Part shown: positions 3,432-42,700 of the stretch, in pieces | Layout: each line of letters opens with the position of its first letter | Position numbering within the stretch: position 1 is the first letter of the stretch | NCBI RefSeq assembly: GCF_024700885.2 | Contig: NZ_CP117016.1 | From: Escherichia coli | Lineage (GTDB): Bacteria > Pseudomonadota > Gammaproteobacteria > Enterobacterales > Enterobacteriaceae | Length of the DNA stretch: 64,000 bases | Strand: one strand, 5' to 3' | Program-made: the position numbers and the translations under genes | Notes under the pieces: model-generated | The model's input: only the letters and a program-made list of their open reading frames with translations | Told to the model about the DNA's origin: nothing | Databases searched by the model: none

Positions 3432-3537
3432 CACTATTTTATCCCTGTTGAATTTGGTTAAGCCGGTGCAGACGCGCCGGGAAACGCACACCTGAACCGG
3501 CACAATAAAATACAATACAACCCCCTGTTACTGGAGA
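3432..3537. repeat. 106-bp sequence, identical second copy at 17603-17708
   Basis: Exact match read by eye between the two loci. Confidence 0.85.
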
Positions 3538-15351: not shown

Positions 15352-16736
15352 TTATTCAGCTGGCAGTGCTATGCGCCACGGAAGCAGTTCGCTGACCCGG
15401 TTGACCGGCCAGTCTGCTATGACGCCAGGCACATGGCGAAGGTAGCTTTCTGGATCCACGTCATTCAGTTTGCACGTCCCGATCAGGCTGTACAGTAGCG
15501 CTCCCCGCTCACCACCATGGCCAGAGCCGAAGAACAGGGTCTTCATCTTTTCACGCAACCAGCTTTCCAGGGATTTCAACAGCGGTTTCGTTTTTCGCTG
15601 ACGTTCAGCAAGCCGCTGCTCTGCCGGCATTCCCCTTATATCCGCCTCTATGGCGTACAACTGACCGATCTGCTCCAGGGCTTCTTCCGTCAGTGCTGAC
15701 GGGATGCGGACGTGCACATCGTGGATCTTTCGGCGGGCATGAGCCCAGCAGGCAGCTTCCGTTATCCCACCATTGCGATACAGCTCGTTGAACCCGGCGT
15801 ACGCATCCGCTTGCAGCACACCGCTGAAGCAAGCAAGATGAGTCTGCGGATGGATGCCTTTTCTGTCCGGGCTGTAAGCGAACCTCACTGCAGGTGCCAA
15901 CGCTGACCCGGCATTGCGGTCATCACGAACATACGCCCACAACCGCCCGGTCTTCGTCTTCTTATTACCCGGCAGCAGTACCTGGACCGGGGTATCATCG
16001 GCATGGAGTTTGCCGTCAGTCATGACATAGCCATGAAGCGCCTCTTCCAGCGGAGACAGCAGCCGGCAGCATGCATCCACCCAGCCCGACAGCAGTGAAC
16101 GGCTCAGCTCCACACCTTGCCGGCCGTATATTTCTGACTGGCAATACAGCGGGGTGTGCTCTGCATACTTCGAGGTCAGCACGCGGGCCAGCAGCCCCGG
16201 TCCGGCGATACCCCGCTCGATGGGCCGCGAAGGTGCAGGTGCCTGCACGATGGCATCGCACTGAGTACAGGCATGTTTTTCCCGTACCGTCCGGATAACC
16301 CGGAAGGCGCTACGCATCAACTCCAGCTGTTCGGCGGTATCCTCGCCCAGATAGCTCAGTGAACCGCCGCAGTTCGGGCAGCACGGCGCCGCAGGCAACA
16401 GTCGCTTTTCGTCACGGGGTAGTGATTCAGGGAACGGCTTACGGGTGCGGGTCTGACGCAACGGACGCTGTACTGCCGGGTCATACACCCTACCAGTCAG
16501 CGTATCGCTCTCTTTCTGAAGCCGGTTCAGATCGGCTTCCATTTGTGCGATACGGCGGGAGACTTTTTCGGAACGACTGCCGAAGTTCATCCGGCGGAGT
16601 TTATCCAGCTGCGCCTGCAGATGTCTATTTCGCGCTCCCGGTTGCTCAGCTTTTCCTGCAGGGCGTGGATCAGCGCTTCCTGTTCGGCCAGGCGCTGTTT
16701 CAGCAGGAAGATGTCGTCAGAAGAGATTTCGTTCAT
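15352..16736 (-). pseudogene. IS66 TnpC transposase with frameshift near the N-terminus
   Basis: MNEISSDDIFLLKQRLAEQEALIHALQEKLSNRERE... continues in another frame as ...QLDKLRRMNFGSRSEK...; shift lies around 16600-16630. Confidence 0.75.
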
Positions 16737-16785
16737 AAGCCCGTATTTTACCGGGCTTATTCTGTGACAACCAGGATAAAGAGAT

Positions 16786-17133
16786 TTACAGCATGGTCAG
16801 GGAGGTCAGCAGCCGCTTGGGCTGTCGCCAGTCGATACCTTCCAGCAGCATCGCCAGCTGCGCCTGCGTAAGGAACACTTTGCCATCACGGGCTGACGGC
16901 CAGGCGAAGCGCCCACGCTCCAGCCGTTTGGTCAGGAGGCACAGTCCGTCACCGGTGGACCACAGCAGTTTAACCTGACTGCCGCTGCGGCCCCGGAAAA
17001 TGAAAACATGGCCGGACATGGGATCGTCTTTCAGCGCCGTCTGTACTTTCGCAGCCAGGCCGTTGAAGCCATTTCTCATATCGGTGATACCGGCAACCAG
17101 CCAAATTTTGGTCCCGGAAGGTAACGGGATCAT
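16786..17133 (-). CDS. IS66 Orf2 (TnpB)
   Basis: MIPLPSGTKIWLVAGITDMRNGFNGLAAKVQ... Confidence 0.85.
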   Translation of the reverse strand: MIPLPSGTKIWLVAGITDMRNGFNGLAAKVQTALKDDPMSGHVFIFRGRSGSQVKLLWSTGDGLCLLTKRLERGRFAWPSARDGKVFLTQAQLAMLLEGIDWRQPKRLLTSLTML

Positions 17134-17468
17134 CGCTTCAGTTCCTGTATCAGCAGAGTCAGGAGCTTTTCGCTGACATTGCCATTGAAGCGGAGCGTCC
17201 CGTGCCGGAACGTTACCTCACAGCTGATACTGAGGGTTTCCGGGTCCTCTGCGAGCGATTCTGGCTGTTCGGCAGCTGCATCGGGAGTCACAGGAAGTAG
17301 CTGGGGGCTCTCTGAAGAAGGTAATAGCAGCTTTCCCTCGCGCCATTGTTGTCGCCATTTGAACAACAGATTGGCGTTAATGCCATTTTCAAGAGCAAGT
17401 TTTGAGATGGATATCCCGGGTTCACAGGAGGCAGCAACGAGCTGCTGTTTAAATTCGGGAGGATAATT
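17130..17468 (-). pseudogene. IS66 Orf1 (TnpA) without a canonical in-frame ATG start
   Basis: Frame encodes ...PEFKQQLVAASCEPGISISKLALENGINANLLFKWRQQWREGKL but is preceded by TGA with no ATG. Confidence 0.6.
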
Positions 17469-17602
17469 AGGGCAGCCTTTTCACCTGCCGGGAGTCACAT
17501 TTTTCTGCATATCTGACACTTTGGTTCCCACTACTTATTTGGTGGACACCACTTTGTCTAATTCGTCAGATTCTGACCAGACGGTTCAGGCTGTACGCTT
17601 AC

Positions 17603-17708
17603 CACTATTTTATCCCTGTTGAATTTGGTTAAGCCGGTGCAGACGCGCCGGGAAACGCACACCTGAACCGGCACAATAAAATACAATACAACCCCCTGTT
17701 ACTGGAGA
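17603..17708. repeat. Second copy of the 106-bp sequence at 3432-3537, abutting the IS66 terminus
   Basis: Exact match. Confidence 0.85.
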
Positions 17709-17864
17709 TACGAATGGAATGACGAGGCAGCCTGTCAGTCACAGGGGGCTGTTGGCATAAAATCAACGGAAAGGCCACCAACACCGGAATTAAGCTCCAC
17801 AGTCCCCGCACTGGCAATCCATTCCCGGGAAAGGCATCACCGCAAACTGCTCCGGAGGCAACCA

Positions 17865-18299
17865 TTACAGCCTCTGTAACGGATTATCAGCCCTGGCATC
17901 TTCCGACGGCACCTCCTGCCGCCCCCACGCCCTGCTGTATACCCCGGTACCGCAGCGTGGGCAGCACTTTTCCCCCTCATAATCTTCGTCACACATCACA
18001 CAAAACCACTTTCTCACCTTCACCGTATAATCCGGAACCGTCATGCCCTGCAGATGCAAACGACGGGCCTCTTTCTCCGCCGGGTCAAGCCAGGTACATC
18101 GCAGCAGGATTTTTTCAGCGACAGTCATCTGGTCATGTTCAAACCACGGTGGTTGTCCGTCATTGCCCCGCTGAAGTGTTAACGGGCATCCACAGGACAC
18201 ACAGCACAAAACGTCCTGTCGGTTGTGCTTCGCAGCTTCTTTCGCCGTAACAAAATGGCCTTTGCTGTCATTCGCCATATAACAGTTCAGAATTCGCAT
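17865..18299 (-). CDS. Cys-rich zinc-ribbon protein (144 aa), paralog of the next gene
   Basis: CxxC...PWFEH...WxCxxC...YxGExxCxxCxTG pattern shared with 18287-18694; AGGAGG RBS. Confidence 0.55.
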   Translation of the reverse strand: MRILNCYMANDSKGHFVTAKEAAKHNRQDVLCCVSCGCPLTLQRGNDGQPPWFEHDQMTVAEKILLRCTWLDPAEKEARRLHLQGMTVPDYTVKVRKWFCVMCDEDYEGEKCCPRCGTGVYSRAWGRQEVPSEDARADNPLQRL

Positions 18300-18694
18300 A
18301 TTTCCTCCTGAGTTGTCCGGGGAATACTGAATCCTCCGGTCTGGCAGTGTGTGCAGTACTGCTCCCCATAATAATCGTGGTGACATTGTCTGCAGTGCCA
18401 GCTGGCTTTACGCACCACGGGTAAGGCATCCGATACGAATTGCTGCAGACGTTTAATCAACTGTATTTCTCTGCGCTCCGGCCTGACATAAGGGCACTGT
18501 TGACCGTGCTCTGTCAGCCTGTCGTCAGTGTGTTCAAACCAGGGAAGTTCAGTGTCGTATTGCGGATGGTATCTGAGTGCACTGCCACACAAGTGGCAGG
18601 TGTAGTTAGCATAAGGTGCGTCCTGTGCAGTACGGGCGCCCGTCAGACGTCCGTTGCCATCAAGAGCGATAAAGGATTTTGCGTACATAGTCAT
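18287..18694 (-). CDS. Cys-rich zinc-ribbon protein (135 aa), paralog
   Basis: Same Cys/PWFEH pattern; overlaps the downstream paralog start by 13 bp. Confidence 0.55.
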   Translation of the reverse strand: MTMYAKSFIALDGNGRLTGARTAQDAPYANYTCHLCGSALRYHPQYDTELPWFEHTDDRLTEHGQQCPYVRPERREIQLIKRLQQFVSDALPVVRKASWHCRQCHHDYYGEQYCTHCQTGGFSIPRTTQEEICEF

Positions 18695-18947
18695 ATTCCT
18701 TAGCCGCCAGACGACACGCAGGCAACAGCCGTCCCGGTACGGGCAGCGTGGTCAGGGTGTGAATGGCGGTTCAGTTAAAATCTGGACTGGAGTTTGGGTA
18801 AAGCAGGCTGGTTGCTGTTACAGCACTGTGGTTGTCACACAATGGAACACTGACGTAAAAAACAGTCAGTGGGCGAGTGGATACATCGTTGCCGCCAGAC
18901 AACAACCCATACTTTTGGTTTGCCGGATATTGGCGCGCCAGTCGTGC

Positions 18948-19517
18948 TCAACTCCGGCTACAGCCAAAATTGCGCTCACCGGTGCAGTGAGCTTTGGTAT
19001 GCTCTTTCGCCAGATAGTCAGCACGTTCCAGCACTTGCTGAAAGCCGGTGTCATCATTACGCGCCAGCCACACCGCCGGCCAGGCCGGAAAATGCACCAG
19101 CGTGGCATGGCACCCGACATCCACTCCCAGGGCACTGCACCACGCCTGTTTAATCATCCCGGCCAGAGACTCCGGAGCGCGGTAATCACCGGCACGACAC
19201 CAGGTATCCCGGTTGACCAGCAGCATCAGGTGATAGTGTTTTTTACCTTTGAACTCCCCAAACTCCCGGGCCCAGACGTAATGCAGGGGGGTGGGATGCA
19301 CGCGTTTACCTTTCCGATGCTTACGTTTCTGGTAAGCGTCGATTCGGGCTTTCAGGGCATTGATGAAGCGGGATATCACAGCTGCGTCCGTTGCTGCCGG
19401 TACATCCGGGAGACGCAGGTCAACCCGCAATGCCGTCAGGCGGGGATGAACATTCAGTGCGTGCCGCACCGTCTCACGAATACGTTGCTGCCAGAAGGGG
19501 TTGTATTTGTAGGTCAT
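18948..19517 (-). CDS. Inovirus Gp2-like / YagK-YfjJ family protein
   Basis: LTALRVDLRLPD...HYHLMLLVNRD... resembles CP4-type prophage YagK/YfjJ; GGAGA RBS before MTYKYNPF. Confidence 0.6.
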   Translation of the reverse strand: MTYKYNPFWQQRIRETVRHALNVHPRLTALRVDLRLPDVPAATDAAVISRFINALKARIDAYQKRKHRKGKRVHPTPLHYVWAREFGEFKGKKHYHLMLLVNRDTWCRAGDYRAPESLAGMIKQAWCSALGVDVGCHATLVHFPAWPAVWLARNDDTGFQQVLERADYLAKEHTKAHCTGERNFGCSRS

Positions 19518-21144
19518 GGTTAAATCTCCGTATGGTTCATACGGAATAGCCACGTCGTAAAAAATGCGCAGAGTCCCTGAAGTGACCTCCGGCAGGACAC
19601 TGTCTCAGGCACTCTGTGATAACCCGAACGGTCGTCTCCGGACTGACGGTTGAATTTTCAGCGTCGTTTTTTAATGTAAAAAACCGGTTACGGGTAAGGC
19701 TGTGAGGAGGGAGTGATGGTGATACGCAAAAAGAAGTGCAGGGATTGTGGAAACGCGATTACTCATAATACAGTGTGTTGCCCGTATTGTGGTTCTGTCG
19801 ACCCCTTCGGCTACTACCGGAATACAGACCGTATCGTTACCATACTGCTGGCGCTGATTATTGTGGTCCTGCTGACTACTGTCAGCGTCAGTGTGTGTAT
19901 ACTGTGTAGCTGGTGAGATAACGGTTCATGTATCCCCTGAGCTGACAGTGTACCGTGTATATTAAGCGTAACCGACAGGTTCTCCTTCATACCATATTAA
20001 ATTTTCCAGGGATTGCCGCTGCCTTATTTCGTCTCATACAGGAAAACTCATCTGGGTTTCTGACAAATACGCGAAACTCACAGCCCCTCAATATCAACCA
20101 CACGTTGTAAGCCGGTAATACCTGAAAATCAGCCTATTACCGCCCACGCCTCCGGCACCATTCCCTTTTGATTTCGAATTCTTTGTTGTCGCTATACCGC
20201 TTAATGTTCCCGGTCCTCCGGTGCAGATAACACCGGAGTCATCGTAGCGCTGCTTCAATATTCAGGTGACATATTTCCAGACGGAAGCCGGCGCGCGATC
20301 GTAAAGTTTGTTCATTGTCAGTTCTGCCAGCCGGTTGTCAACGGCAGAGTTAAAGGCTTCCAGCTCCGCAAGGGTAAGTTTATAACGCGTGTGGGAATTC
20401 ACTTTTCCCGCGTCTCCTGACGTATTACGGGCTGCCACTTACCTGGTGTCCCGCAATACAGCCTTAGTGTTCCGTTATCGGGGATCCGGACGCACCGCAA
20501 CAACCGGGGAAGTATTTCTGGTTTAGAGCATTGTCAAGAGGGATTTCTCAGCCCCTCACTCACCGCTCAGTCTCAGGGCAGGAGCATTAATACGCTCAGT
20601 TCATGTCTTATACAGGAATGGGCACAGGGGGAGCTGGCGTGTCACTGCTGATTTTACGCATCAGCGTTCATGTATCTGCACTCTGATACATGAACGATTC
20701 ACAGCGCTCTGTTACCGGAGAGATTTACTCTCTTAGCTTACTCTGGCAAATCCTTTACGTTACTCTCTGATGACTTCTTATATTTATAATACCAATCAGA
20801 CAGCCTTATCCCATCGGTGATATCAGTCTCCTCCTCGCCAGGAACGGGCTGACTCACTGTAACCACCTCCGAAAACAACTCTGCAATTATCAGAACGCCT
20901 GCTTCTCTCCCTGTCCTCACGAAAACTATCCCCTCTTTATCGCGCGTGCGTGCGGAAGCATCTTTTCGCAACAACCACCCGGTATACCGGTACGGCTCAG
21001 CCACCGCAACCTCCCCGTTTATCTCCTGGCGGTCACATTCCCGATTATTTTTTACGTTTCTCCCCGGTTGTTATGCCGGTGAAGGTGGCGCGCTGTTTTC
21101 ATGACCACACCGGCTGGTTTAACAACATCCGGAGGAACATTCTC

Positions 21145-21351
21145 ATGGCTACCCCAGTTTCACTGATGGATGACCAGATGGTCGACATGGCATTTATCAC
21201 TCAACTGAACGGCCTGACAGATAAGTGGTTTTACAGGCTCATCAGGGATGGGGCCTTTCCGGCTCCCATCAAGCTGGGCCGCAGCTCCCGCTGGCTGAAA
21301 AGTGAAGTGGAAGCCTGGCTACAGGCGCGTATTGCACAGCCCCGCCCGTAA
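21145..21351 (+). CDS. alpA: AlpA-family phage regulatory protein (68 aa)
   Basis: MATPVSLMDDQMVDMAFITQLNGLTDKWFYRLIRDGAFPAPIKLGRSSRWLKSEVEAWL; GGAGG RBS. Confidence 0.8.
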   Translation: MATPVSLMDDQMVDMAFITQLNGLTDKWFYRLIRDGAFPAPIKLGRSSRWLKSEVEAWLQARIAQPRP

Positions 21352-21439
21352 TTTCTGACCGTTATCCGTTCACCCGCAGCAGACGTAATCCCCGGCCTGC
21401 CGGCGGCATTCTGCTGCCTGTTATATCCCCGTGAGGAAT

Positions 21440-22048
21440 ATGAAAATGAAACAACAGTATCAGACCCGCTACGAATGGCTCCACGAAAGCTACCAGAAAT
21501 GGCTGACCGGCTTCACCCGGCACGCCGTATCCTGGGGCGTGTGTCATCCGAATATCTACTACTTCCATAATCTGACGCCCGGTTGGGTGTCATTCAATGG
21601 TGAAAAACCGGAGATTGCCATCGTACCCCAGAGCCTGCACCGGCTGATTTATGGCCCTGACAAACGGGCCACGCCGCCCCTGGATGATGATCTGATTGTG
21701 AATTTATGCACCAGTGAACATCTGCTGGTTCATCATCCGATGCTGGAAGGCATTCTCCTGTCTGAATGTGAACGTCTGAGGCAGCGTTCTCTGGCAAATA
21801 AACTGATCAGCCTCTTCCGTCAGTTTGGTGGCACGGAGTTGCGCCTCAAACTGGTCTGGCTTTGCTGGCTTGATTTAATGACCGGAAACAGCCTTGAAGA
21901 CTGGAAAGAGAACCTGAAACGGAAATCAGAAAAAGAGCTGGAGGAATGGATCATCAACCGTCAGAGGCAGAGCGCAGCACTGACGGATCTGATGGATCAG
22001 TACGTGCTCCTGGCATACCGCACAACGGTTGACGATAGCCGCAACTGA
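21440..22048 (+). CDS. Hypothetical island protein (about 202 aa)
   Basis: ORF directly downstream of alpA; no family recognised. Confidence 0.35.
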   Translation: MKMKQQYQTRYEWLHESYQKWLTGFTRHAVSWGVCHPNIYYFHNLTPGWVSFNGEKPEIAIVPQSLHRLIYGPDKRATPPLDDDLIVNLCTSEHLLVHHPMLEGILLSECERLRQRSLANKLISLFRQFGGTELRLKLVWLCWLDLMTGNSLEDWKENLKRKSEKELEEWIINRQRQSAALTDLMDQYVLLAYRTTVDDSRN

Positions 22049-23233
22049 TGCCGGTTGCTTCCGGAAGGTGTGACAAAATACGGAAATGATGATGCTCCCG
22101 GCCCCGCATGCTCACCTGCAGAGCGTGTTCGTCGTCATCATACTGAGCCATGACGGGCGTCTTAAGGGCATCCTGTCATTGCTGAGCAGGCAACACCACC
22201 AGAGGAGCCACGGACAGGGATGTTCTTTACAGCCCGATACACGCCAGGTTCTCAGCAGACTGAATGTGCAGGTGCGGTTATTCACCAGAAATGGCATGCT
22301 GCGGTACATACCCATCCTGGTGACAATATGTACGTGGCGACAGCGATCCCGGCACTGTGGAAGAGACTCACTCAGCCTGCAGGATATTCTTTCCGGCATC
22401 CGGGAATGTCCGCCTGAATGCAAACAGGATGATATTTGAATCCGTAATACTGTTCTTTCATCATAAATAATTTATGCAGATACAGTTAACCGTTACAGTA
22501 GCCGGTTTGTTTTACCGGGAAATAATATCCGTCAGACTGATGCCGGAACATATCTGAAACACGTTATGATGTTTTGTTATCAGAAATGTTGTATATTCTT
22601 ATCCGTGGCGACAGTTTAATGCCCTCTGGTATCACCTTGGATTTGCCCCTATATTTACGGGACACGCCTCTTTTCATTGTGCTCCTTTTCAGACTTCATT
22701 TTCCGTAAGTGTTCCCCGGCATAAAGGAGGTACCTTTCTGGCGTTTATAACTCTCTTTATCGGTGACGCCGGTAATACAGGGAATACCACACCGACAAAC
22801 GAGGTATTAACAGACGATATTTCAGTGTCCATAATTTTTCTGTCCGGTTAAATAACGTCAGTCTGCTGCCCTCTGACTGTAATCATCAAAGCCGGAATGC
22901 ATACCGGGTTACAACGTAAAAAAAGTGATGCTGGCCCCCGGTGCAGCTGGCGGGCGAAACATGTTTACCTTTCAATACCCCCTGTCTGCAGTCTCCACTC
23001 TTCCATCCTCTTAAGCTACGTCGGCCACATGAGTGCACTTCCATGATAACAGGTATTCCTGTCAGCATAACGAAGCCGGTTACCTTCCCTTCCTCCTGCA
23101 TTTCCTGTCAGAATGACTGTACAGCGCGCAGATTGCCTTTTTATTGACCACCTTAATATACCATTATAAACTTCTTTTTATCATGTTATTATCACCTTAT
23201 TATGTTTAATTTTTAAGCAACCGGAGAAAGAGG

Positions 23234-24151
23234 ATGGTTCAGAAAATTTTGTCGGATAAGGTTATGAATGAAAGAACAAATGCGTATTACTCTTATTATC
23301 TTGGAGAGCGTAATATCTCCGTACTGCCCCTTAATGTTTATGATCCCCCGGAACGTTTTATCGCTTACATAAAAAAAAACAGAGAAAATCTGAACATCAC
23401 ACTTTCAGATTTTGAACTTGAACAAATCATTTCTGGTATGCGTCTGAAGGCACTGGCCTCCCTGGTGCCCCTGGAAAAAATATCCTGGATCGCGGGCAGT
23501 GAACGTGCATGCTTATTTTCCTGGTATCTGTTGATGCAGTTTATCCAGAATAACAGGACAAAAATAAGCGCAGACTTGCTTCAAAAGAATAAACTGTATC
23601 TTAAAGAAGAGTATTTAGAAGGGAATGCCTTCCCGTCGGACTCATCGACACAGTTCAGACAAATACTCAGAGTTCTCGATATTCTTTCTGATAAGAATTT
23701 GCGGGATGAGTGGATAATCCAGACCAAAGACAGATGGATGCGGGCATTTAAATCAAAGAGTCCTTTCAGTTACCTCCTCCCGGAGAACGAACATGAATGC
23801 ATATGGACATGGAATTATTTGAAGGGAAAAAATATTGCACTGGAAAAACTGGCCAGTTTTCCTGGTTCTGCTGATATTTACCACGCAATTCACCTTTCAT
23901 TTGACATATGGGTTACCTGTCCACTCACCTCACCTGACGATATAAAAAATTTCAGAAACAGTTTCAATAAGGCCAAGGCGCAGCGCAAGTACAAAAAAAT
24001 GCAGGAAGATAAAGTCAATGTACAGTTTTTTCTTGACGCAGAAACCAGGGCGCAGCTCAAAGAATTATCGAGGGTCAGAAGACTCAGTACCGGCGAAATG
24101 CTGCATGACCTGATTGTTGAAGAGTATAAAAGGTACCGACATTCCAGATAA
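23234..24151 (+). CDS. Hypothetical protein (305 aa)
   Basis: ORF with GGAGAAAGAGG RBS directly upstream of the GTPase gene; no family recognised. Confidence 0.4.
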   Translation: MVQKILSDKVMNERTNAYYSYYLGERNISVLPLNVYDPPERFIAYIKKNRENLNITLSDFELEQIISGMRLKALASLVPLEKISWIAGSERACLFSWYLLMQFIQNNRTKISADLLQKNKLYLKEEYLEGNAFPSDSSTQFRQILRVLDILSDKNLRDEWIIQTKDRWMRAFKSKSPFSYLLPENEHECIWTWNYLKGKNIALEKLASFPGSADIYHAIHLSFDIWVTCPLTSPDDIKNFRNSFNKAKAQRKYKKMQEDKVNVQFFLDAETRAQLKELSRVRRLSTGEMLHDLIVEEYKRYRHSR

Positions 24152-32796: not shown

Positions 32797-33706
32797 CTTT
32801 TGCACCAGAACCAGTGAAGATCACTCACCCGATTTCACTTCCCTGACGTCAGCCTGAACACGGCTGGCGTTTTCATTTATAAACAGAAAGGAAAAATGAT
32901 GATGTCAGATACCACACTCTCCCGCCCGGAGGTGGTCAGCGGGCATACGGACGTTATCTATTCCACCTCAGTCTGCCACATTCTGGCTGTACGAAAGAGT
33001 ACACTGTTGCCAATCGACACAATTATCCGGCATCAAGTAAGCGATATCAGTTAACCGATATAGATGGGGAAGATGCTTTTATCCGGATTGGTTCTATCGC
33101 GATGGTGCGAGTACCACTTGATGCAATGGAGCCTGTCGAGGAAGATGACGAGTAACAGAGCTCGGTATCTCAATCAGGACCTGATTGTCCTGGTTCGATG
33201 CCGAAAACCAGTGATTTTTCGTGTTGGTATCTGTGTTGGTATAGGATGGTGTTGTTTATTATTAACAATTTTAAATCATGAGGTTAAATCGCATGTTTGA
33301 GTCCGGCCTTCGCACCACATCGTATGCAAATCGAGTCGCTCAAGGGCGGCTTTTTTTGTGCCTGTGTTTTCACTACTTTGTTTGTATGTAACGCTGATAA
33401 TCTAAGAACTTCGGAAGCCCCATTCCCATCAATGATGTTCATTCATCATCCTGAAAATTAAGTAGATATAAAACTTCATTGCCTTGGTCTAATGGCTCAG
33501 GAAATAGATTGCATTTAGCGAGTGGCATTCTTAATGTGCCATTGTTTAGCCATGAAACGATGCGTAAAATTGCTGATTTTATGTGTCAAAGGCCCGCAAC
33601 CGGAGATGTCCTTACTTCAAGGATCAACCACTATTGGCGTATCCTTTTACTATCTTGATTCAATTCAGCAGGTTATCGTCAAAAGTACAGCGAAGAGAGA
33701 GAAAAG

Positions 33707-36598
33707 ATGATTGGTACAACACCTTATCATGCGAAATATTTTGCGCATGAACTTTCCATTCTCCATTCAAACAATGGGGTGGACCGTCTGTCTCAATCGC
33801 TGTTTGATGCAAGCGTAGATCTAAATCCTCATCAAATTGAGGCGGCTCTTTTTGCTATTGAAAATCCGCTAAGCAAAGGTGTTGTGCTTGCCGATGAAGT
33901 TGGTTTAGGTAAAACCATTGAAGCGGGGTTAGTGCTTTGCCAGTTGTGGGCTGAAAGAAAACGTAAACTGTTGATCATTTGTCCTGCTTCACTGCGTCGC
34001 CAATGGGCGAGCGAGTTACAGGAAAAGTTCAATCTACCTTCTCAGGTGTTGGACGCGAAAACGTATAGCCAGCTTCAAAAAGAAGGGATCCATAATCCCT
34101 TAAATAATAAATCGATCACTATCATGTCATACCACTATGCTGCTCGGTTAGAAGAAAAATTGGTGGCTGAAATGTGGGATCTGGTTGTTATCGACGAAGC
34201 CCATAAACTGCGTAATGCTCATCGAGAAAGTAACAAAATGGGGCAAGCGTTAAAGCGTGCGCTTGATGGGCGGAAAAAATTACTACTGACCGCAACGCCT
34301 TTACAGAATTCGTTAATGGAACTGTATGGCATGTCGACGCTTATAGATGAACATACCTTCGGCGAAGTTAAAGCGTTCAGAAAGCAATATATGCAGGCAG
34401 ATAGCGATATTGCGGAGTTGAAGGGGCGATTGTCGCGTTTTATCAAACGAACTTTACGCAAGAATGTGCTGGAGTACATCAAGTATACAGAACGTAAAGC
34501 GATCACTATTCCTTTCTATCCGAGCGAACAGGAGCAGGATCTTTATGAACGCGTACAAAAATTGCTTGAACGTGAGGATAGCTATGCCTTACCAAAACGA
34601 CACCGGCATCTGACGGGGCTTATTCTCAGAAAGCTACTTTCCTCAAGTACGAAAGCTGTATTGAATAACTTGCAGATCCTTAAGAGTCGTTTAGAAAGGT
34701 TAAAGCTGGAAGGTATCGTTGAAGATGATATGAACATCATCCAACAGATCATAATGGATGACGATCTTGAAGATGACATCGTGGAAGATGCCGAATCAGT
34801 GGCTTTAGATACCGAGTGCAAAGTTGTCGATTCAGACGCGCTTCAGGCAGAAATCAATGAGCTGGAATCACTCATTGTCAAAGCAGAACAGATTGGCACT
34901 GATACCAAATCAAAAGAGTTGCTTTCTGGCCTGGAGCAAGGTTTTGCACAGCTTGCCGAAATGGGGGCTGCAAAAAAAGTCATCATCTTCACGGAGTCAA
35001 TGCGAACTCAACAGTATCTTGCACATTTTCTGGAAAACAATGGCTACCAGGGGAAAGTAGTAACCTTTAGTGGCACAAACAATACACCGCAGGCAAACAA
35101 GATCTACCAGCAATGGCGCGAGGAATATCAGGGATCTTCTCGTATTACCGGGTCGGCGCAAATTGATAAACGCTCGGCTTTGATCGACCACTTCAAAGAT
35201 CATGCTGAAATCATGATAGCTACAGAAGCTGCAGCTGAAGGGGTGAACCTGCAATTTTGTTCGCTACTGATCAATTACGATTTACCCTGGAACCCACAAC
35301 GCATTGAACAGCGTATTGGACGTTGTCACCGATACGGGCAAAAATTTGATGTGGTTGTTATTAACTTCCTCAATCAGCGAAACCAGGCCGATCAACGCGT
35401 TCTTGAACTCTTAACTGAAAAGTTCAGCCTGTTTGATGGCGTGTTTGGCGCATCGGATAGTGTGCTTGGCAGCATAGAAAATGGTGTGGATTTTGAAAAA
35501 AGGATCCAGTCAATTTATGAGTCATGCCGTACCCCCGAGGAGATAGAGCTGGCTTTTGAAAGGTTGCAGAAAGAGCTGGAAGATGAAATCAATCTCAAGA
35601 TGCAGAAGACGCAAGAACAGTTGCTTGAGCATTTTGATGAAGATATTCACGATATCCTTAAAATAAGGCTTGATGAAGCTCGGGAGCGTCTGGATAAAGT
35701 CGGTCGTTGGTTTTGGGCCGTGACCTGTCAGCAGCTCAAACAATATGCTGATTTTGATCATGAGCATCATCGTTTCACTTTACGTGAATCAGTAAATGAA
35801 CTGCCTGTCGGGCAGTACCAGCTGTTGCGCAAAGATGGTAGGCAAAATAGTGCGTTACAAATGCAGGATCACCACAGTTTTGCATATCGGATCAATCATC
35901 CGCTGGGTGAGTACGTCATTGAGGGGGCTAAGGTCCAGGAGACGAAAACAGCTGAAGTCATCTTCGATTACAGTAACCACACAACGAAAGTCTCGGTGGC
36001 TGAGCAGCTGAAAGGGCAATCAGGGTGGTTAACACTAAATTTGCTTACTGTTGATGCGTTTAACAGGCAGCAATTTTTAGTCTTTACCGCAAAAACTGAC
36101 AACGGACGTGTGGTAGATGGTGAAGCTTGTAAACGTCTGTTCAACTTGTCTGCAATAACCAACGAAAAGCTGGATAATTCGGCAAGTTCAGATGCATTAC
36201 CTGATGACTTGATCTTACTCAAGAACAGGCAAATTGACGCCAGACTTGCGGAAGTTCTGGAGCAGAACAATGTCCTTTTTGAAGCTGAAAGAGATAAGCT
36301 GGAAAAATGGGCTGAAGATATGATCTTTGCGGCGGAAGAAGCATTACGCGATACCAAAATGCAAATCAAGTCGTTAAAGCGAGAAGCCAGACTGGCGCAA
36401 TCGATGGAAGAACAAAAGCAAAACCAGGAAAAGCTGAAGCTACTGGAACGGCAGCAGAAACGCCAACGTATGGAAATTTTTGACATTGAAGATGAGATCG
36501 CTGACAAGCGGGATGAACTCATCAGTGCCCTTGAAGAGCGGATGAAGCAAAAAACGGATATCACCGAGCTTTTTTCCATCCGCTGGAAAGTTATTTAA
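33707..36598 (+). CDS. SNF2-family DEAH-box ATPase/helicase (963 aa) with C-terminal coiled-coil tail
   Basis: Walker A DEVGLGKT (33893-33916), motif II VVIDEAHKLRN (DEAH 34193-34204), motif III LLLTATPLQNS, helicase-C NLQFCSLLINYDLPWNPQRIEQRIGRCHRYGQ; AGAGAGA RBS. Confidence 0.85.
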   Translation: MIGTTPYHAKYFAHELSILHSNNGVDRLSQSLFDASVDLNPHQIEAALFAIENPLSKGVVLADEVGLGKTIEAGLVLCQLWAERKRKLLIICPASLRRQWASELQEKFNLPSQVLDAKTYSQLQKEGIHNPLNNKSITIMSYHYAARLEEKLVAEMWDLVVIDEAHKLRNAHRESNKMGQALKRALDGRKKLLLTATPLQNSLMELYGMSTLIDEHTFGEVKAFRKQYMQADSDIAELKGRLSRFIKRTLRKNVLEYIKYTERKAITIPFYPSEQEQDLYERVQKLLEREDSYALPKRHRHLTGLILRKLLSSSTKAVLNNLQILKSRLERLKLEGIVEDDMNIIQQIIMDDDLEDDIVEDAESVALDTECKVVDSDALQAEINELESLIVKAEQIGTDTKSKELLSGLEQGFAQLAEMGAAKKVIIFTESMRTQQYLAHFLENNGYQGKVVTFSGTNNTPQANKIYQQWREEYQGSSRITGSAQIDKRSALIDHFKDHAEIMIATEAAAEGVNLQFCSLLINYDLPWNPQRIEQRIGRCHRYGQKFDVVVINFLNQRNQADQRVLELLTEKFSLFDGVFGASDSVLGSIENGVDFEKRIQSIYESCRTPEEIELAFERLQKELEDEINLKMQKTQEQLLEHFDEDIHDILKIRLDEARERLDKVGRWFWAVTCQQLKQYADFDHEHHRFTLRESVNELPVGQYQLLRKDGRQNSALQMQDHHSFAYRINHPLGEYVIEGAKVQETKTAEVIFDYSNHTTKVSVAEQLKGQSGWLTLNLLTVDAFNRQQFLVFTAKTDNGRVVDGEACKRLFNLSAITNEKLDNSASSDALPDDLILLKNRQIDARLAEVLEQNNVLFEAERDKLEKWAEDMIFAAEEALRDTKMQIKSLKREARLAQSMEEQKQNQEKLKLLERQQKRQRMEIFDIEDEIADKRDELISALEERMKQKTDITELFSIRWKVI

Positions 36599-36603
36599 TT
36601 GAT

Positions 36604-39600
36604 TTGAAAGAGAAAATAATGAGTAAGTACAACGAATTAGTTAAGAAGCTAAAAGAAATTTTTCAGATTGATCGACCAGAACTGGATTTCGGTATTTATC
36701 GTATTTTAAATGCACGTGCTGATGAAATTAACGACTATCTGGATAATAAGCTGAAGGCCAAAATCCAGTCTGCGCTGGCGGATGCAGGAAATGCCAATAA
36801 ATCAGAATTAGAACATCAGTTGCAACTGACAATAAAAGCGGCAACTGATGCGGGTGTGGACCCTGCTGATAGCCCGAAAGTACAGGAGCTTAAAAAGCAA
36901 CTGGCGGCTATGGCATCCGGAGCAAATGAGCATGAAAATGCAGTATTTTCCCATCTGCTGACTTTCTTTTCGCGTTATTATGACAACGGCGATTTTATCA
37001 GCAAACGCCGTTATAAAGGTAATACCTACGCCATCCCTTATTCTGGCGAAGAAGTGATGTTGCACTGGGCAAATAAGGACCAGTACTACATTAAAAGCGG
37101 TGAAAACTTTGCTAATTATTCATTTAAATTAGATGATGGTCGTAAAGTTAGCTTTAAATTGCTCGCAGCGGACACAGCAAAAGATAACCGTAAAGATAAT
37201 GAATTAGATCGCTGCTTTGTACTTATTGAGCCGCATGTTCGTACCAAAATTGATGAAGAAGGCGATGAGTACGAACAAGAATATAAGCCAGTAGAAGTGG
37301 TGAAAACTTCATCTGTGGTTGACGGTAAACTCGTTGAAACAGAAGAGTTAGTTATTCACTTCGAATATAAGGCCATGAAAAAGGGCACTAAGCAGGATGC
37401 TTTAGTGCAGTCCGCTATTTCAACAATTCTGGCTGATAAAACAGTTCAACAGCATTGGGTTGATCTTGCTAAACGTGCGCCAACAGAAAAAAATCCGTCA
37501 CGTACAGAGTTGGAGCGTCATCTTACAACTTATACCCAGCGTAATACAGCAGACTACTTTATTCATAAAGATCTCGGTGGTTTTTTAACTAACGAACTGG
37601 ATTTTTATATTAAAAATGAAGTAATGAATCTCGATAATGTGCAAAATGCAGAAGTGTTTGCCAATATTGAGAAACAATTGCGCATGATTCAATGTTTGCG
37701 TACTGTTGCGCTGGAACTCATTGCATTTTTGGCACAAATTGAGAATTTCCAGAAGAAACTTTGGACTAAGAAGAAGTTTGTTGTTTCAAGTAATTACTAT
37801 ATTACTATGGACAAAATAAGTTCAGAGTTTTACAGTGAAATAATTAATAATGAAAAAATAGTCCAAGAATGGATTGAATTAGGCATCTTAGATGAGAAGC
37901 CATCTACCTCTGATGTGGAGTTGCTCAAGTTTGCAACAGTTAATTTATCTCATTTAAACGGAGATCTAAGGAAAAAAATATTAAATAGTATCAATGATAT
38001 TGACGATAATGTTGATGGCGTTTTTATTAATGGTGATAATTATCAAGCGTTAAATCTTTTGAAGAAAAAATATAATTCCGTAATTGATTGTGTCCATATA
38101 GATCCACCATATAACACAGATACTAGTGGTTTTTTATATAAAAATAGCTTTAAGCATTCAAGTTGGCTGAGTATGATGGATAGCCGTTTGCTTTTTGTTA
38201 AAAATTTACTCAGTGAAAATGGTGTATTTTTTTGTCATATTGATGAAAATGAATATGAGCGACTTTATTTAATTAATAAACAGTTAGGTCTTATCGATGC
38301 AGGGACAATTATTTGGGATAAACGCAATCCCATGAATGGTGGTAGTGGCATTGCGATTCAACATGAATATACTACTTGTTTTACAAAGAACATGATTTCT
38401 ATTAATAAGAAAAATGAGAATGTATTAGAAATACTCGAATATGCAAAATTAATTAAGAATAAATATCCTGTAATTAACAGTGAAGCAAAGAAAAAATTTT
38501 ATGATTGGGTAACAAAGAATAAAAAACTTACTGGAGGTGAACAAGCTTACAAATATATCGATGAGAAAGGTCGAGTGTACCAGAGTGTCAGCCTCCGTGC
38601 CCCAGAGCCAAGGACTGACAAGAAATTCTATATACCATTAATTCATCCAGTTACCGGGAAACCATGCGCTATGCCACCAAATGGTTTTTCTCGTACCCCA
38701 GAAACATTAAAAGATATGATGGATAAGGGGGATATACTATTTGGTGTTGATGAAACAACGCAACCTAGACAGAAAGCATATTTATATGCTGACGCTAAAA
38801 AGCAAATAACATCAATAATTCAGGATGCTAAAAAAGGAAAAACTCAAACAACTCATCTTGGAATTGATTTTCCTTATTGTCACTCAACTTCTTTATATAA
38901 TTATTTAATTGGGAGTGCATCTCATAATAAAAATGAGATAATATTAGATTTTTTTGCTGGTTCAGGAACAAGTGGCCACTCAGTCATAGAGTTGAATCGT
39001 AAGGATGCGGGTTCAAGGAAATATATACTTGTTGAACAGGGGGAGTATGCACAAAATGTAACTTTAAGCAGGTTGAGAAAAGTTATATTCAGTAGCAATT
39101 GGAAAGATGGTAAAGCTATGGATTCAACGACAGGCTCATCTCATATACTTAAAGTTATGAAAATAGAAAGTTACGAAGATGTATTAAATAGCCTTCGATT
39201 TGAACAACAAAAAGAAATAAAAGATCTTTTTGATACAGTGAATGAATCAGTAGCAAATGAGTATTTAATAAAATATATGCTTGAAACAGAAAGCAAAGGT
39301 TCACTACTCAGTACTGATAATTTCAAAAAACCATTTAACTACGAAATGGATATTGCGACGGATTCCGCCGGTGCCACTGAGCGTAAAAACATCGATTTAG
39401 TTGAAACTTTCAACTATCTCATTGGTTTACATGTGAAATCCATCGAATCCAATATCGAACGTGGCTATGTGCGTGTTGAAGGAATGCTACCAACAGGCGA
39501 GCGTACCCTTATTCTGTGGCGCGATTGCGACAAGATCGGTTATGAAGAATTGAATAAATATGCCAACCGATTCGATTTATATGCAAAAGAAAACACGTTC

Positions 39601-39741
39601 GACGTTATCTATATCAATGGCGATCATAACTTACCTACCGCCTTTACTGTTGATGAAGAAGACGGCGAGATTGTTCGTAGCCTGAAAATCCGCCAGATCG
39701 AACCTGAATTCTTGAACCTGATGTTTGCGGAGGAGGTTTAA
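36604..39741 (+). CDS. Large beta-class DNA methyltransferase (N6-adenine/N4-cytosine type; 1045 aa) with about 490-aa N-terminal extension
   Basis: Motif IV HIDPPYNTD (38101-38112) precedes motif I ILDFFAGSGTSG (38951-38977), the order seen in Type III Mod; starts 6 bp after the SNF2 stop. Confidence 0.8.
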   Translation: MKEKIMSKYNELVKKLKEIFQIDRPELDFGIYRILNARADEINDYLDNKLKAKIQSALADAGNANKSELEHQLQLTIKAATDAGVDPADSPKVQELKKQLAAMASGANEHENAVFSHLLTFFSRYYDNGDFISKRRYKGNTYAIPYSGEEVMLHWANKDQYYIKSGENFANYSFKLDDGRKVSFKLLAADTAKDNRKDNELDRCFVLIEPHVRTKIDEEGDEYEQEYKPVEVVKTSSVVDGKLVETEELVIHFEYKAMKKGTKQDALVQSAISTILADKTVQQHWVDLAKRAPTEKNPSRTELERHLTTYTQRNTADYFIHKDLGGFLTNELDFYIKNEVMNLDNVQNAEVFANIEKQLRMIQCLRTVALELIAFLAQIENFQKKLWTKKKFVVSSNYYITMDKISSEFYSEIINNEKIVQEWIELGILDEKPSTSDVELLKFATVNLSHLNGDLRKKILNSINDIDDNVDGVFINGDNYQALNLLKKKYNSVIDCVHIDPPYNTDTSGFLYKNSFKHSSWLSMMDSRLLFVKNLLSENGVFFCHIDENEYERLYLINKQLGLIDAGTIIWDKRNPMNGGSGIAIQHEYTTCFTKNMISINKKNENVLEILEYAKLIKNKYPVINSEAKKKFYDWVTKNKKLTGGEQAYKYIDEKGRVYQSVSLRAPEPRTDKKFYIPLIHPVTGKPCAMPPNGFSRTPETLKDMMDKGDILFGVDETTQPRQKAYLYADAKKQITSIIQDAKKGKTQTTHLGIDFPYCHSTSLYNYLIGSASHNKNEIILDFFAGSGTSGHSVIELNRKDAGSRKYILVEQGEYAQNVTLSRLRKVIFSSNWKDGKAMDSTTGSSHILKVMKIESYEDVLNSLRFEQQKEIKDLFDTVNESVANEYLIKYMLETESKGSLLSTDNFKKPFNYEMDIATDSAGATERKNIDLVETFNYLIGLHVKSIESNIERGYVRVEGMLPTGERTLILWRDCDKIGYEELNKYANRFDLYAKENTFDVIYINGDHNLPTAFTVDEEDGEIVRSLKIRQIEPEFLNLMFAEEV

Positions 39742-39743
39742 GA

Positions 39744-42700
39744 ATGGCTAAAAAACCGACCACCGGTAAAGCTGTTAAAAAAGAGACAAACAGCAAACTG
39801 AGCTTTCATAAGCAACTGGTTTTGAACCGCTTTATGTTCCATTTTTTTAAAGATGGCACATTGCAAGGTTTAAAAAATCGGTTAGGTGAAGATCGCTTTG
39901 AAGGCATCCATGAAGATGGCCAAAGCTTGTTCTTCCATGAGCTGAGTAACTATTTATTCGAGGTCGATCTTATCGATCTCGATGAACTGCGTCGTTACGA
40001 TCTCAATATCGTACAGCACTGGCAGCAGATAACTGAGCACCGTAATCGCAAAGAAGACACCGTGCTGAATATGAAATATTTTCAGTACTTGTCGCTTCTG
40101 TTTACCGAGATCTACCTGGACTGGTACTTCAATCGTAAACAGCAATTACTCGATGGGCTAAATAACGAGCTGGCAGCATACAATGCTGAAAATGATAAAA
40201 CAGCAAAAGACCGGGCTAATCAGTTCAAATCATACATTCTAGATGACTTGAATAAACTTGCATACTGGAACGCTACCGGTTCGGGTAAAACACTGCTATT
40301 GCATGTCAATATTTTGCAATATTTACATTATTTCCAGAACGGTAATACCCACCATTACCCGGATAAAATCATCCTGCTTACGCCGGATGAACGCCTGTCG
40401 AAGCAACATTTAGATGAGCTGGAAAACTCAGGATTTACCCAATACCAGTTATTCGATAAGAGTAAATCTGCGCCCTTCAAAGGCACGATTGAAGTTATTG
40501 ATATCAATAAACTTGCCGATGAAATGGGTGACAAAACTGTTGCCGTTGAGGCATTTGAAGGCAACAATCTGGTTCTGATTGATGAAGGGCATAAAGGCAC
40601 CGGAAGTGCTGCTGGTGCCTGGATGCGCCGTCGTGACAAATTAACACGTGACGGATTTGCGTTTGAATATTCAGCAACTTTTGGCCAGGCAGTAGCCGGT
40701 GGCAATAATGTTGAGGCAGTTGAAACAGAAATTCAGAAGAAAAAAGCAAAGCTGCTTTTTGAAACAACGGCCTTAGGTAAACTGAACGAAGAAGAGTTAG
40801 CGCAAATAGCATTAACCAGCGAAGAAAAACGAGATGCGCGTATTCAGGCGACGCGAGAGGTCTATGGAAAATCGATTCTGTTCGATTACTCCTATAAATT
40901 CTTCTATGAGGATGGTTATGGTAAAGAATCACTGATTCTTAACCTTAATCCTGAAGAGGATAAAAAAGATGAGCGTCGGTATGAGTATTTTACCGCGTGT
41001 TTGCTCAGCTTTTATCAGCAACAATATTTATTCAATAAGAATAAAGAAAAATTAAGTGAATTTAATATCGAAAAACCGCTGTGGGTTTTTGTCGGTAATA
41101 CGGTAAGTGGTGAAGATTCAGACATTCACGCAGTATTGCGTTTTTTAGCATGGTTTTTAAACCACGAAACGCAGGCAAAAGCGTGGATTAACGATCTCAT
41201 TAAAAATAAAGCGCGAATCCTCGATACCAAAGAGCGTAACATTTTTGAAAATCGCTTTACTGCACTAATGAACGCTCCGGAAGATATCTACGCAGATATT
41301 CTTTCTCGCTTGTTTAACACCACTCACTCTGGTCAGCGACTGCGAGTTCTGAATTTAATAGGCAGTAAAGGTGAACTGGCATTACAGGTTGGTGAGGCCG
41401 AACCGTTTGGCCTTATCAATATTGGTGATGCACCGTCTCTTTACAAAATGTGTGAAGAGGATACGACATTTGATTATCAGAGAGATGATTTTGCAAAGTC
41501 ACTCTTTCATACGTTAAATGACAAAGACTCGCGACTACATATTTTGATCGGCTCGCGAAAATTTACTGAAGGCTGGAGCAGTTGGCGCGTCTCAACGATG
41601 GGATTGCTCAATATGGGCCGTGGAGAAGGTTCACAGATCATTCAGTTATTTGGTCGTGGCGTACGCCTTAAAGGTCGCAATTATTCTTTGAAACGCAGTA
41701 CACCCGGTGAGCGTCCGAAAGGGTTGCATCTGGAAAAATTAGAGACACTGAATGTATTCGGTGTACGTGCCGATTACATGGCAACCTTTAAACAATACCT
41801 GGAAGATGAAGGGATTACGCCAAGTGACGAGATCCTTGAGCTGAATTTTGAAACTCGGCCAAATATGCCAGCAACCAGGCTTAAAACACTTAAGCTTAAA
41901 GATGGTTATAAAGATAATCAAAGACTCGGCTTTAAACGTGTCTATTTTCCCGAATTGTATGAAGTTCCTGCTGATTTTCAGGGGAAAATTAAGCAGCCGC
42001 ATATTAAGCTGGACTTATACCCGAAACTTGAGTCGATTGATACCAGCAGAAAAGGGGACAATACTCCGGTTAACGTGCGCAATGAAGCGAAGTTAGATTA
42101 TAAAATCATTAGTGCATTTGATTTTGATCGGCTTTATCTCGCCATTCAGAATTATAAACTACAACGCGGCTGGTCAAATTTACGTGTGGATAAACAACGT
42201 TTGATCGACTTTTGTACCGGTAAGACAAAGATCGGAAATAGTTGGTATACCCTTTTGATTCCAGCTTCAGAGCTTGAGATTAAGCAATATGCAGATATTG
42301 CTAAGCAGGAAGATATTATGCTTCGTCTGCTGACTGATTATACTGATCGCTTTTACAACACCTTGAAAAATGCTTATGAAGGTCAGTTTTATGAAGTCAC
42401 GCAGGTGAAAGAAGATGATCCTGGTATGATCAAAATGTACCATTTCGAGATCGAAGAAACTGATGATGGGTTGGCTTATGCCAGTCGGCTGGAACAATTA
42501 CAACAATTGGTCATCGACGGCGAAATCGGTAAAGCAAAATCCTGGAGTGCATCCGGGATGGTTGCTATTACCTTTGATAAACATCTCTATTACCCGCTTC
42601 TTTCGATTGAAAAAAATGCCAATATACCGCTAAAAATGCGACCGGCAGCACTTGGTGCGCCAAGCGAGATTACTTTTGTTCAGGATCTTCAGTCTTTTGT

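Follow-up and report, generated by a model that had tools for sequence, protein, structure and literature searches.

A tandem pair of zinc-ribbon genes in the backbone of CP4-like islands of Enterobacterales, next to a putative HUH nickase gene

Two overlapping genes for small zinc-ribbon proteins lie beside a YagK-like gene in a 64,000-nucleotide stretch of Escherichia coli DNA (contig NZ_CP117016.1 of assembly GCF_024700885.2; hereafter the window), and this arrangement raised the question of whether the tandem was an oddity of one island or a regular part of such islands, and of what its products would do there. The region 17400-20300 was 100% identical to E. coli strain MLI114 (NZ_CP117013), and the window is part of the E. 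coli chromosome. Both genes, named here znrA and znrB, were intact (Table 1). An earlier note on this DNA had described two overlapping genes of about 140 codons, which agreed with the 144 and 133 residues and the 13-nt overlap found here. An alternative start of znrA was present at the ATG at 18694, which would give a protein of 135 aa. The sequence AGGAGG was located 5 nt upstream of the znrB start at 18299 as a ribosome-binding site, and AGGA was located 8 nt upstream of the znrA start at 18688. Because the start codon of znrB was placed inside the end of znrA, coupled translation of the two genes is suggested. The island also carried Ag43, YeeU/CbtA, antirestriction, DUF932, and RadC-like genes. 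No origin-like repeat, hairpin or iteron was found within 17400-20300, no notable repeat was seen in the 259-nt gap before znrA, and no Rfam family matched within 16500-23500, including this gap (18689-18947). A promoter and terminator scan gave nothing exceeding chance. Divergent from the YagK-like gene, a 66-aa ORF (19716-19916, plus strand; RefSeq WP_001297219.1, hypothetical) encoded a protein in which a zinc-ribbon motif, CxxC...CxxC, preceded a hydrophobic tail resembling a membrane segment, and this ORF was kept beside the module in other E. coli strains.

Table 1. Features of the zinc-ribbon locus in the window, and degenerate YagK paralogs in related loci (locus given before the positions)
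Feature	Position	Strand	Description
znrB	17865-18299	-	144 aa; non-A clade (B); DUF7828 and Zn_ribbon_11; RefSeq WP_001221615.1, "zinc-ribbon domain-containing protein"
znrA	18287-18688	-	133 aa; A clade, N-terminus MYAKSFIA; DUF7828 and Zn_ribbon_11; RefSeq WP_000270983.1, "putative zinc ribbon protein"
znrA/znrB overlap	18287-18299	-	13 nt, ATGCGAATTCTGA; znrB start codon within the final znrA codons
Gap between YagK-like gene and znrA	18689-18947	-	259 nt, non-coding; site held by alpA in most other species
YagK/YfjJ-type ("inovirus Gp2 family") HUH-fold gene	18948-19517	-	189 aa; PF11726, E 1e-47
alpA-type HTH regulator	21145-21351	+	PF05930, E 1e-7; divergent; 1628 nt from the start of the YagK-like gene
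200-aa protein gene, downstream of alpA	21446-22048	+	RefSeq start; longest ORF 205 aa from GTG at 21431
IS66-family element	15352-17602	-	frameshifted tnpC; 262 nt downstream of znrB; start of variable cargo
YagK/YfjJ paralog	L041 8493-9059		lacks HUH histidines and tyrosine
YagK/YfjJ paralog	L044 5290-5856		lacks HUH histidines and tyrosine
YagK/YfjJ paralog	L020 5906-6454		lacks HUH histidines and tyrosine
YagK/YfjJ paralog	L025 2620-3279		lacks HUH histidines and tyrosine

The paralogy proposed in the earlier note held up in pairwise alignment, in which ZnrA and ZnrB shared 30% identity over 125 residues (BLASTP, E 1e-14). A profile search gave both proteins the same two named domains in the same order, DUF7828 at the N-terminus (PF25165; E 5e-31 and 9e-31 for the two proteins) and a ribbon, Zn_ribbon_11, at the C-terminus (PF11682, formerly DUF3279; E 9e-9 and 2e-18). 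The two domains scored 106.7 and 35.3 bits in ZnrA and 105.8 and 66.4 bits in ZnrB, compared with Pfam gathering scores of 25.7 bits for DUF7828 and 24 bits for Zn_ribbon_11. Both proteins of the window were thus full members of this family, from which no difference was seen. The CxxC...PWFEH...CxxC...YxGE...CxxCxTG pattern that had been read from the letters was likewise present in both. The first CxxC was formed by C31/C34 in ZnrA and C33/C36 in ZnrB, the second by C99/C102 and C100/C103, respectively, and the PWFEH, YxGE, and CxxCxTG motifs were common to the two. Among 35 diverse members, residues C33, C36, F53, H55, C100, C103, C113, and C116 (ZnrB numbering) were invariant and C68 was nearly so. 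The putative zinc ligands followed the pattern CxxC...H...C and then CxxC...CxxC in these 35 members, the window proteins included, which fits two predicted zinc sites per protein, an N-terminal Cys2-His-Cys site and a C-terminal Cys4 ribbon. No further invariant polar residue able to serve catalysis was found across the 35 members.

The AF2 model of ZnrB had a mean pLDDT of 88.8, and no solved structure in the PDB matched the family profile (best E 0.74). The Znr proteins are not obviously DNA-binding, because their net charge was near neutral (mean pI 7.3-7.8). No useful match for the ZnR proteins was obtained in NCBIfam, PADLOC, or PHROGs. The N-terminal zinc finger of CoiA (CoiA_N, PF25164) and DUF7830 shared with the N-terminus of the ZnR proteins the arrangement A..G..v.A ... 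CxxC ... [WH]F.H, and 12 of the 35 members gave sub-threshold matches to CoiA_N (best E 7e-5). ZnrB reached 12.7 bits (E 0.09) against a gathering score of 26.3 bits, and a kinship read from these motifs would be distant at most. CoiA is a DNA-structure, D-loop-resolving nuclease whose N-terminal zinc finger is putative (bioRxiv 10.1101/2024.02.06.579203). In contrast to CoiA, the ZnR proteins had no PD-(D/E)XK nuclease domain and contained an extra Cys4 ribbon. The literature search revealed no functional work on the Pfam families, YagK, or YfjJ, and no paper naming these families was found, in keeping with the remark of the earlier note that the function of the two proteins was unknown. The family defined by DUF7828 and Zn_ribbon_11 is already known and both products are already annotated; it is ordinary in occurrence and uncharacterised.

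The pair was widespread. With the two znr genes as the query, 3795 of the 5426 complete E. coli genomes gave a match, which in 2980 of them covered at least 80% of the query. Genomes with any match contained a median of 2 matching places, with a maximum of 7. The pair occurred in the same order in Salmonella, Trabulsiella, Siccibacter, Buttiauxella, Budvicia, Yersinia, and Ewingella, as well as on Klebsiella IncFIB/IncHI1B plasmids. A scan of one genome per species revealed 24 loci, a sample biased towards loci with an A-type gene because an alignment of the A clade only was used as the query. The genera represented included Salmonella, Trabulsiella, Siccibacter, Tenebrionibacter, Buttiauxella, Citrobacter, Leclercia, Atlantibacter, Serratia, Budvicia, Yersinia, Ewingella, and Enterobacillus, and there were three records labelled Collinsella, Bacillota, and Chryseobacterium, which were taken to be contaminated or mislabelled assemblies. 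The ZnR family is narrow, since a profile search of 1.84 billion representative proteins gave only 264 matches at E <=0.001, and it appears to be confined to Enterobacterales save for a few records labelled otherwise. Neither Znr protein matched anything in 50,697 phage records. OR844780.1 (L046), an unverified, low-coverage contig of 4.5 kb from a phage preparation of E. coli O111, contained a YagK-like gene at 92.6% identity and no znr genes; it was rejected as a phage-borne YagK-like gene, and either contamination by host DNA or packaging of island DNA may explain it. The tandem had been called unusual in the earlier note, which was contradicted by these counts, by the RefSeq names of both products, and by the same order in several other genera. 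Rather than being peculiar to the window, the pair is a common backbone module with existing annotation.

The relation between the two positions was analysed by neighbour joining of 45 ZnR proteins, each marked with the position of its gene in the pair; most of the loci had been found with an A-type query. All first-position proteins fell in the monophyletic clade A, characterised by the N-terminus MYAKSFIA, and all second-position proteins fell in non-A clades, of which B starts with MR[IM]LKCY and Q with MQF[KR]. The three truly single-gene loci (L005, L006, and L007) contained a non-A protein. The split by position was clear despite the A-biased sample. Between orthologs, dN/dS ranged from 0.11 to 0.29 in the A gene and from 0.10 to 0.32 in the second gene, and both genes are under purifying selection. 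The 13-nt overlap recurred in four distant loci (L020, L022, L023, and L041, the last on a Klebsiella plasmid). The order of A followed by non-A and the low dN/dS, together with the constant upstream neighbours described below, mean an ancient duplication whose order is fixed and which selection maintains. Since the second znr gene was frameshifted or truncated in about one third of the A-type loci, an A gene can be retained without its B partner. Chimeric ZnR variants were also present in E. coli, for example with a B-type N-terminal half and an A-type C-terminal half, together with further N- and C-terminal types (P0040, P0031, P0054, and P0033-P0052); the chimeras suggest frequent recombination among paralogs and island copies.

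A comparison of neighbourhoods revealed that a YagK-like gene and alpA were located just upstream of znr in 28 of 28 loci with enough upstream sequence, among which were 24 genomes at the species level and an IncFIB/IncHI1B plasmid of Klebsiella. The usual order on one strand was yagK, alpA, znrA, and znrB. The E. coli layout deviated from it in that alpA and the 200-aa gene were divergent and 1.6 kb away, a distance and orientation of alpA that the earlier note had given correctly. The same note had the YagK-like gene following the pair; the adjacency was borne out and the order was not, since transcription puts this gene before znrA. Its description of a CP4/P4-like module was right as to the CP4-like island genes, whereas "P4-like" was loose in view of the phage search and of the Ogr/Delta comparison given below. 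The pair belongs to the conserved backbone of the CP4-like integrative islands of Enterobacterales.

The YagK-like protein contained the HUH motif H94-Y-H96 and a tyrosine motif, Y168-L-A-K171, and the HUH and YxxK residues were kept in 13 of 14 YagK homologs, the exception being the second paralog of L041. Its structural model (pLDDT 85, pTM 0.83) was closest to HUH nuclease domains, with scores of 8.5 for the parvovirus NS1 nuclease, 8.3 for SIRV1 ORF119, 7.6 for AAV Rep, 7.0 for Helitron transposase, 6.4 for TnpA-REP, and 6.2 for RepB. Judged by motif and by predicted fold, the neighbour is an HUH-superfamily protein and a putative nickase. A degenerate YagK paralog was located directly after the pair on the Klebsiella plasmid, in E. 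coli ChlosBP-23-1, and in Tenebrionibacter and Serratia (Table 1). The presence of an inactive HUH paralog beside the active one suggests a regulatory or structural partner. In one further protein, P0183 (454 aa), a ZnR module was fused to a degenerate YagK-like domain, which matched the adjoining Rep-like gene (BLASTP, E 3e-23) and the YagK profile (E 5e-12); this fusion was a single case on one assembly contig of 4.8 kb. In K-12, no annotated znr gene was found beside either yagK or yfjJ, so the nickase-like protein can do without znr. The 200-aa protein downstream of alpA had no family match. Its homologs were found in L018, L019, L028, and L040, and Salmonella, Citrobacter, and Enterobacillus have them together with the module. 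Between znrA and the second znr gene of L013, L028, and L035 lay a gene of about 200 codons, and the protein of the window matched this intervening gene strongly in L028 (E 5.5e-52) and weakly in L013 (210 aa, 725-1357; E 0.008).

Because homology among the E. coli variants stopped within the 3' end of znrB and the downstream genes varied by locus, the pair is the border between backbone and variable cargo. The downstream content included IS66 or ISL3 elements, conflict-system genes, an Eco57I-type methylase, and WYL proteins: SMEK_N/CTD10, MC6, and DUF2326 in L007, the Eco57I-type methylase with a HATPase protein in L009, and WYL/WCX proteins in L006. In the window, znrB was followed by the IS66 element ending at 17602 and by about 14 kb of IS-rich cargo. 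The module is truncated there, and related islands have the dead YagK paralog at the position of the cargo. A perfect direct repeat of 106 nt (17603-17708 and 3432-3537) flanked this cargo, which contained IS66, a phytase-like esterase, a YmgB/AriR family gene, virK, an lpxM copy, a BCCT transporter, and a TetR regulator. In ChlosBP-23-1 (L044), the distal 42 nt of the repeat occurred once, 310 nt past the dead YagK paralog, and ran into the chromosomal flank; it would thus seem that the 14-kb cargo came to the end of the island later, by insertion or rearrangement. At about 33700-43800 (L001 from 36308 onwards, into L002), genes for an SNF2-related protein, a site-specific DNA methyltransferase, and a DEAD/DEAH helicase were followed by those for a phosphorothioated-DNA-binding restriction endonuclease and an HNH fragment, an array that resembles a defence region and lies at the far island end.

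From these neighbours we infer a possible role, to which we would give somewhat less than an even chance: ZnrA and ZnrB may be zinc-dependent accessory factors, binding DNA or a partner, of a YagK/AlpA module for island maintenance. The two proteins, their translation coupled, would be produced together with AlpA and the nickase-like YagK protein. AlpA would switch the module on, and the Znr proteins, as accessory and probably joint subunits that bind DNA or the nickase, would then help or control YagK, positioning it on island DNA in excision-linked replication or mobilisation. Several observations speak against this reading: the near-neutral charge of the proteins, the lack of an annotated znr gene beside yagK and yfjJ in K-12, the broken second gene in about one third of the A-type loci, the absence of an origin-like hairpin or iteron within 17400-20300, and the occurrence of the fusion in one protein only. 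A more specific form is doubtful. In it, DNA recognition and regulation within a YagK HUH nickase complex would fall to ZnrA and ZnrB, joined in some islands by the dead YagK paralog, and the complex would replicate or mobilise excised CP4-like islands. Zinc fingers are built into the HUH enzymes of Helitron and IS91 elements, and relaxases and rolling-circle Rep proteins have accessory DNA-binding factors; the zinc module that is encoded with an HUH-fold protein here, and fused to one in P0183, would resemble these by functional analogy only. The islands of Pseudomonas with a core of IntY, AlpA, and a Gp2-like protein are mobilisable (bioRxiv 10.1101/2024.08.29.610337). They have in common with the present islands an integrase, AlpA, an inovirus-Gp2-like protein, and RadC as core genes, along with variable defence cargo, and no word beginning with "zinc" occurs in the main text describing them (bioRxiv 10.1101/2024.08.29.610337).

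The pair could instead act in transcription. ZnrA and ZnrB would then be zinc-finger transcription factors like Ogr and Delta, activating genes of the island or of a helper phage downstream of AlpA with no direct link to YagK, which we consider unlikely. The Ogr protein of P2 and the Delta protein of P4 are, like the ZnR proteins, small zinc-binding proteins of elements of the P4-integrase type, and P4 Delta is likewise a duplication, an internal one, of an Ogr-like unit. The predicted zinc binding and small size of the Znr proteins, the position of their genes directly after alpA in most species, and their place at the border with variable cargo would all suit such a role. However, no sequence relation to Ogr/Delta (PF04606) was detected at E <=0.1, each ZnR protein had two predicted zinc sites, and the ZnR pair consisted of two separate genes. 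In contrast to Ogr and Delta, no ZnR protein was present in phage or satellite records among the 50,697 searched. A dead HUH domain fused to a ZnR module, and a dead YagK paralog that recurs beside the pair, point to the nickase and not to RNA polymerase.

A role in conflict was judged less probable still. The pair would serve anti-restriction, or the sensing or regulation of the adjacent defence cargo, and its adjacency to yagK would reflect only the shared backbone. The defence-like cargo of the related loci L007, L009, and L006 is consistent with this, as are the antirestriction and RadC-like genes on the same island and the position of abpAB, which adjoins yfjJ in K-12. However, the only match to the PADLOC-DB defence profiles was one of 10 bits for ZnrB (E 0.06), which is not a meaningful E-value. 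The pair was constant while the cargo varied and is thus not tied to any single defence system, and the fusion to a YagK-like domain would be left unexplained.

That the two genes are decaying remnants with no present function is highly improbable. The island was full of IS elements and pseudogenes, and the second znr gene was broken in several species, but the dN/dS range of 0.10-0.32 covering both genes, the intact ORFs with good ribosome-binding sites, and the invariant putative zinc ligands all argue against decay. An unusual tandem duplication local to this island, as the adjacency of the paralogs might suggest, is scarcely credible and was refuted by the occurrence of the pair in 2980 of 5426 E. 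coli genomes and by the sorting of A and non-A clades by position across many genera, in addition to an identity between the paralogs of only 30%.

What the present analysis adds to the annotated family is the fixed order of A followed by non-A and the association with HUH paralogs, both active and inactive, which together make the function of the pair testable. CP4-like islands bear defence systems, toxin-antitoxin pairs, and adhesins, and more than half of the complete E. coli genomes have the pair, frequently as multiple copies. Its linkage to an HUH nickase-like gene, to AlpA, and to an inactive paralog leads to a concrete hypothesis on how CP4-like islands may be maintained or moved. If the Znr proteins do serve a YagK nickase complex, the "cryptic prophages" of most E. 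coli would own an unrecognised route to autonomous replication or transfer.
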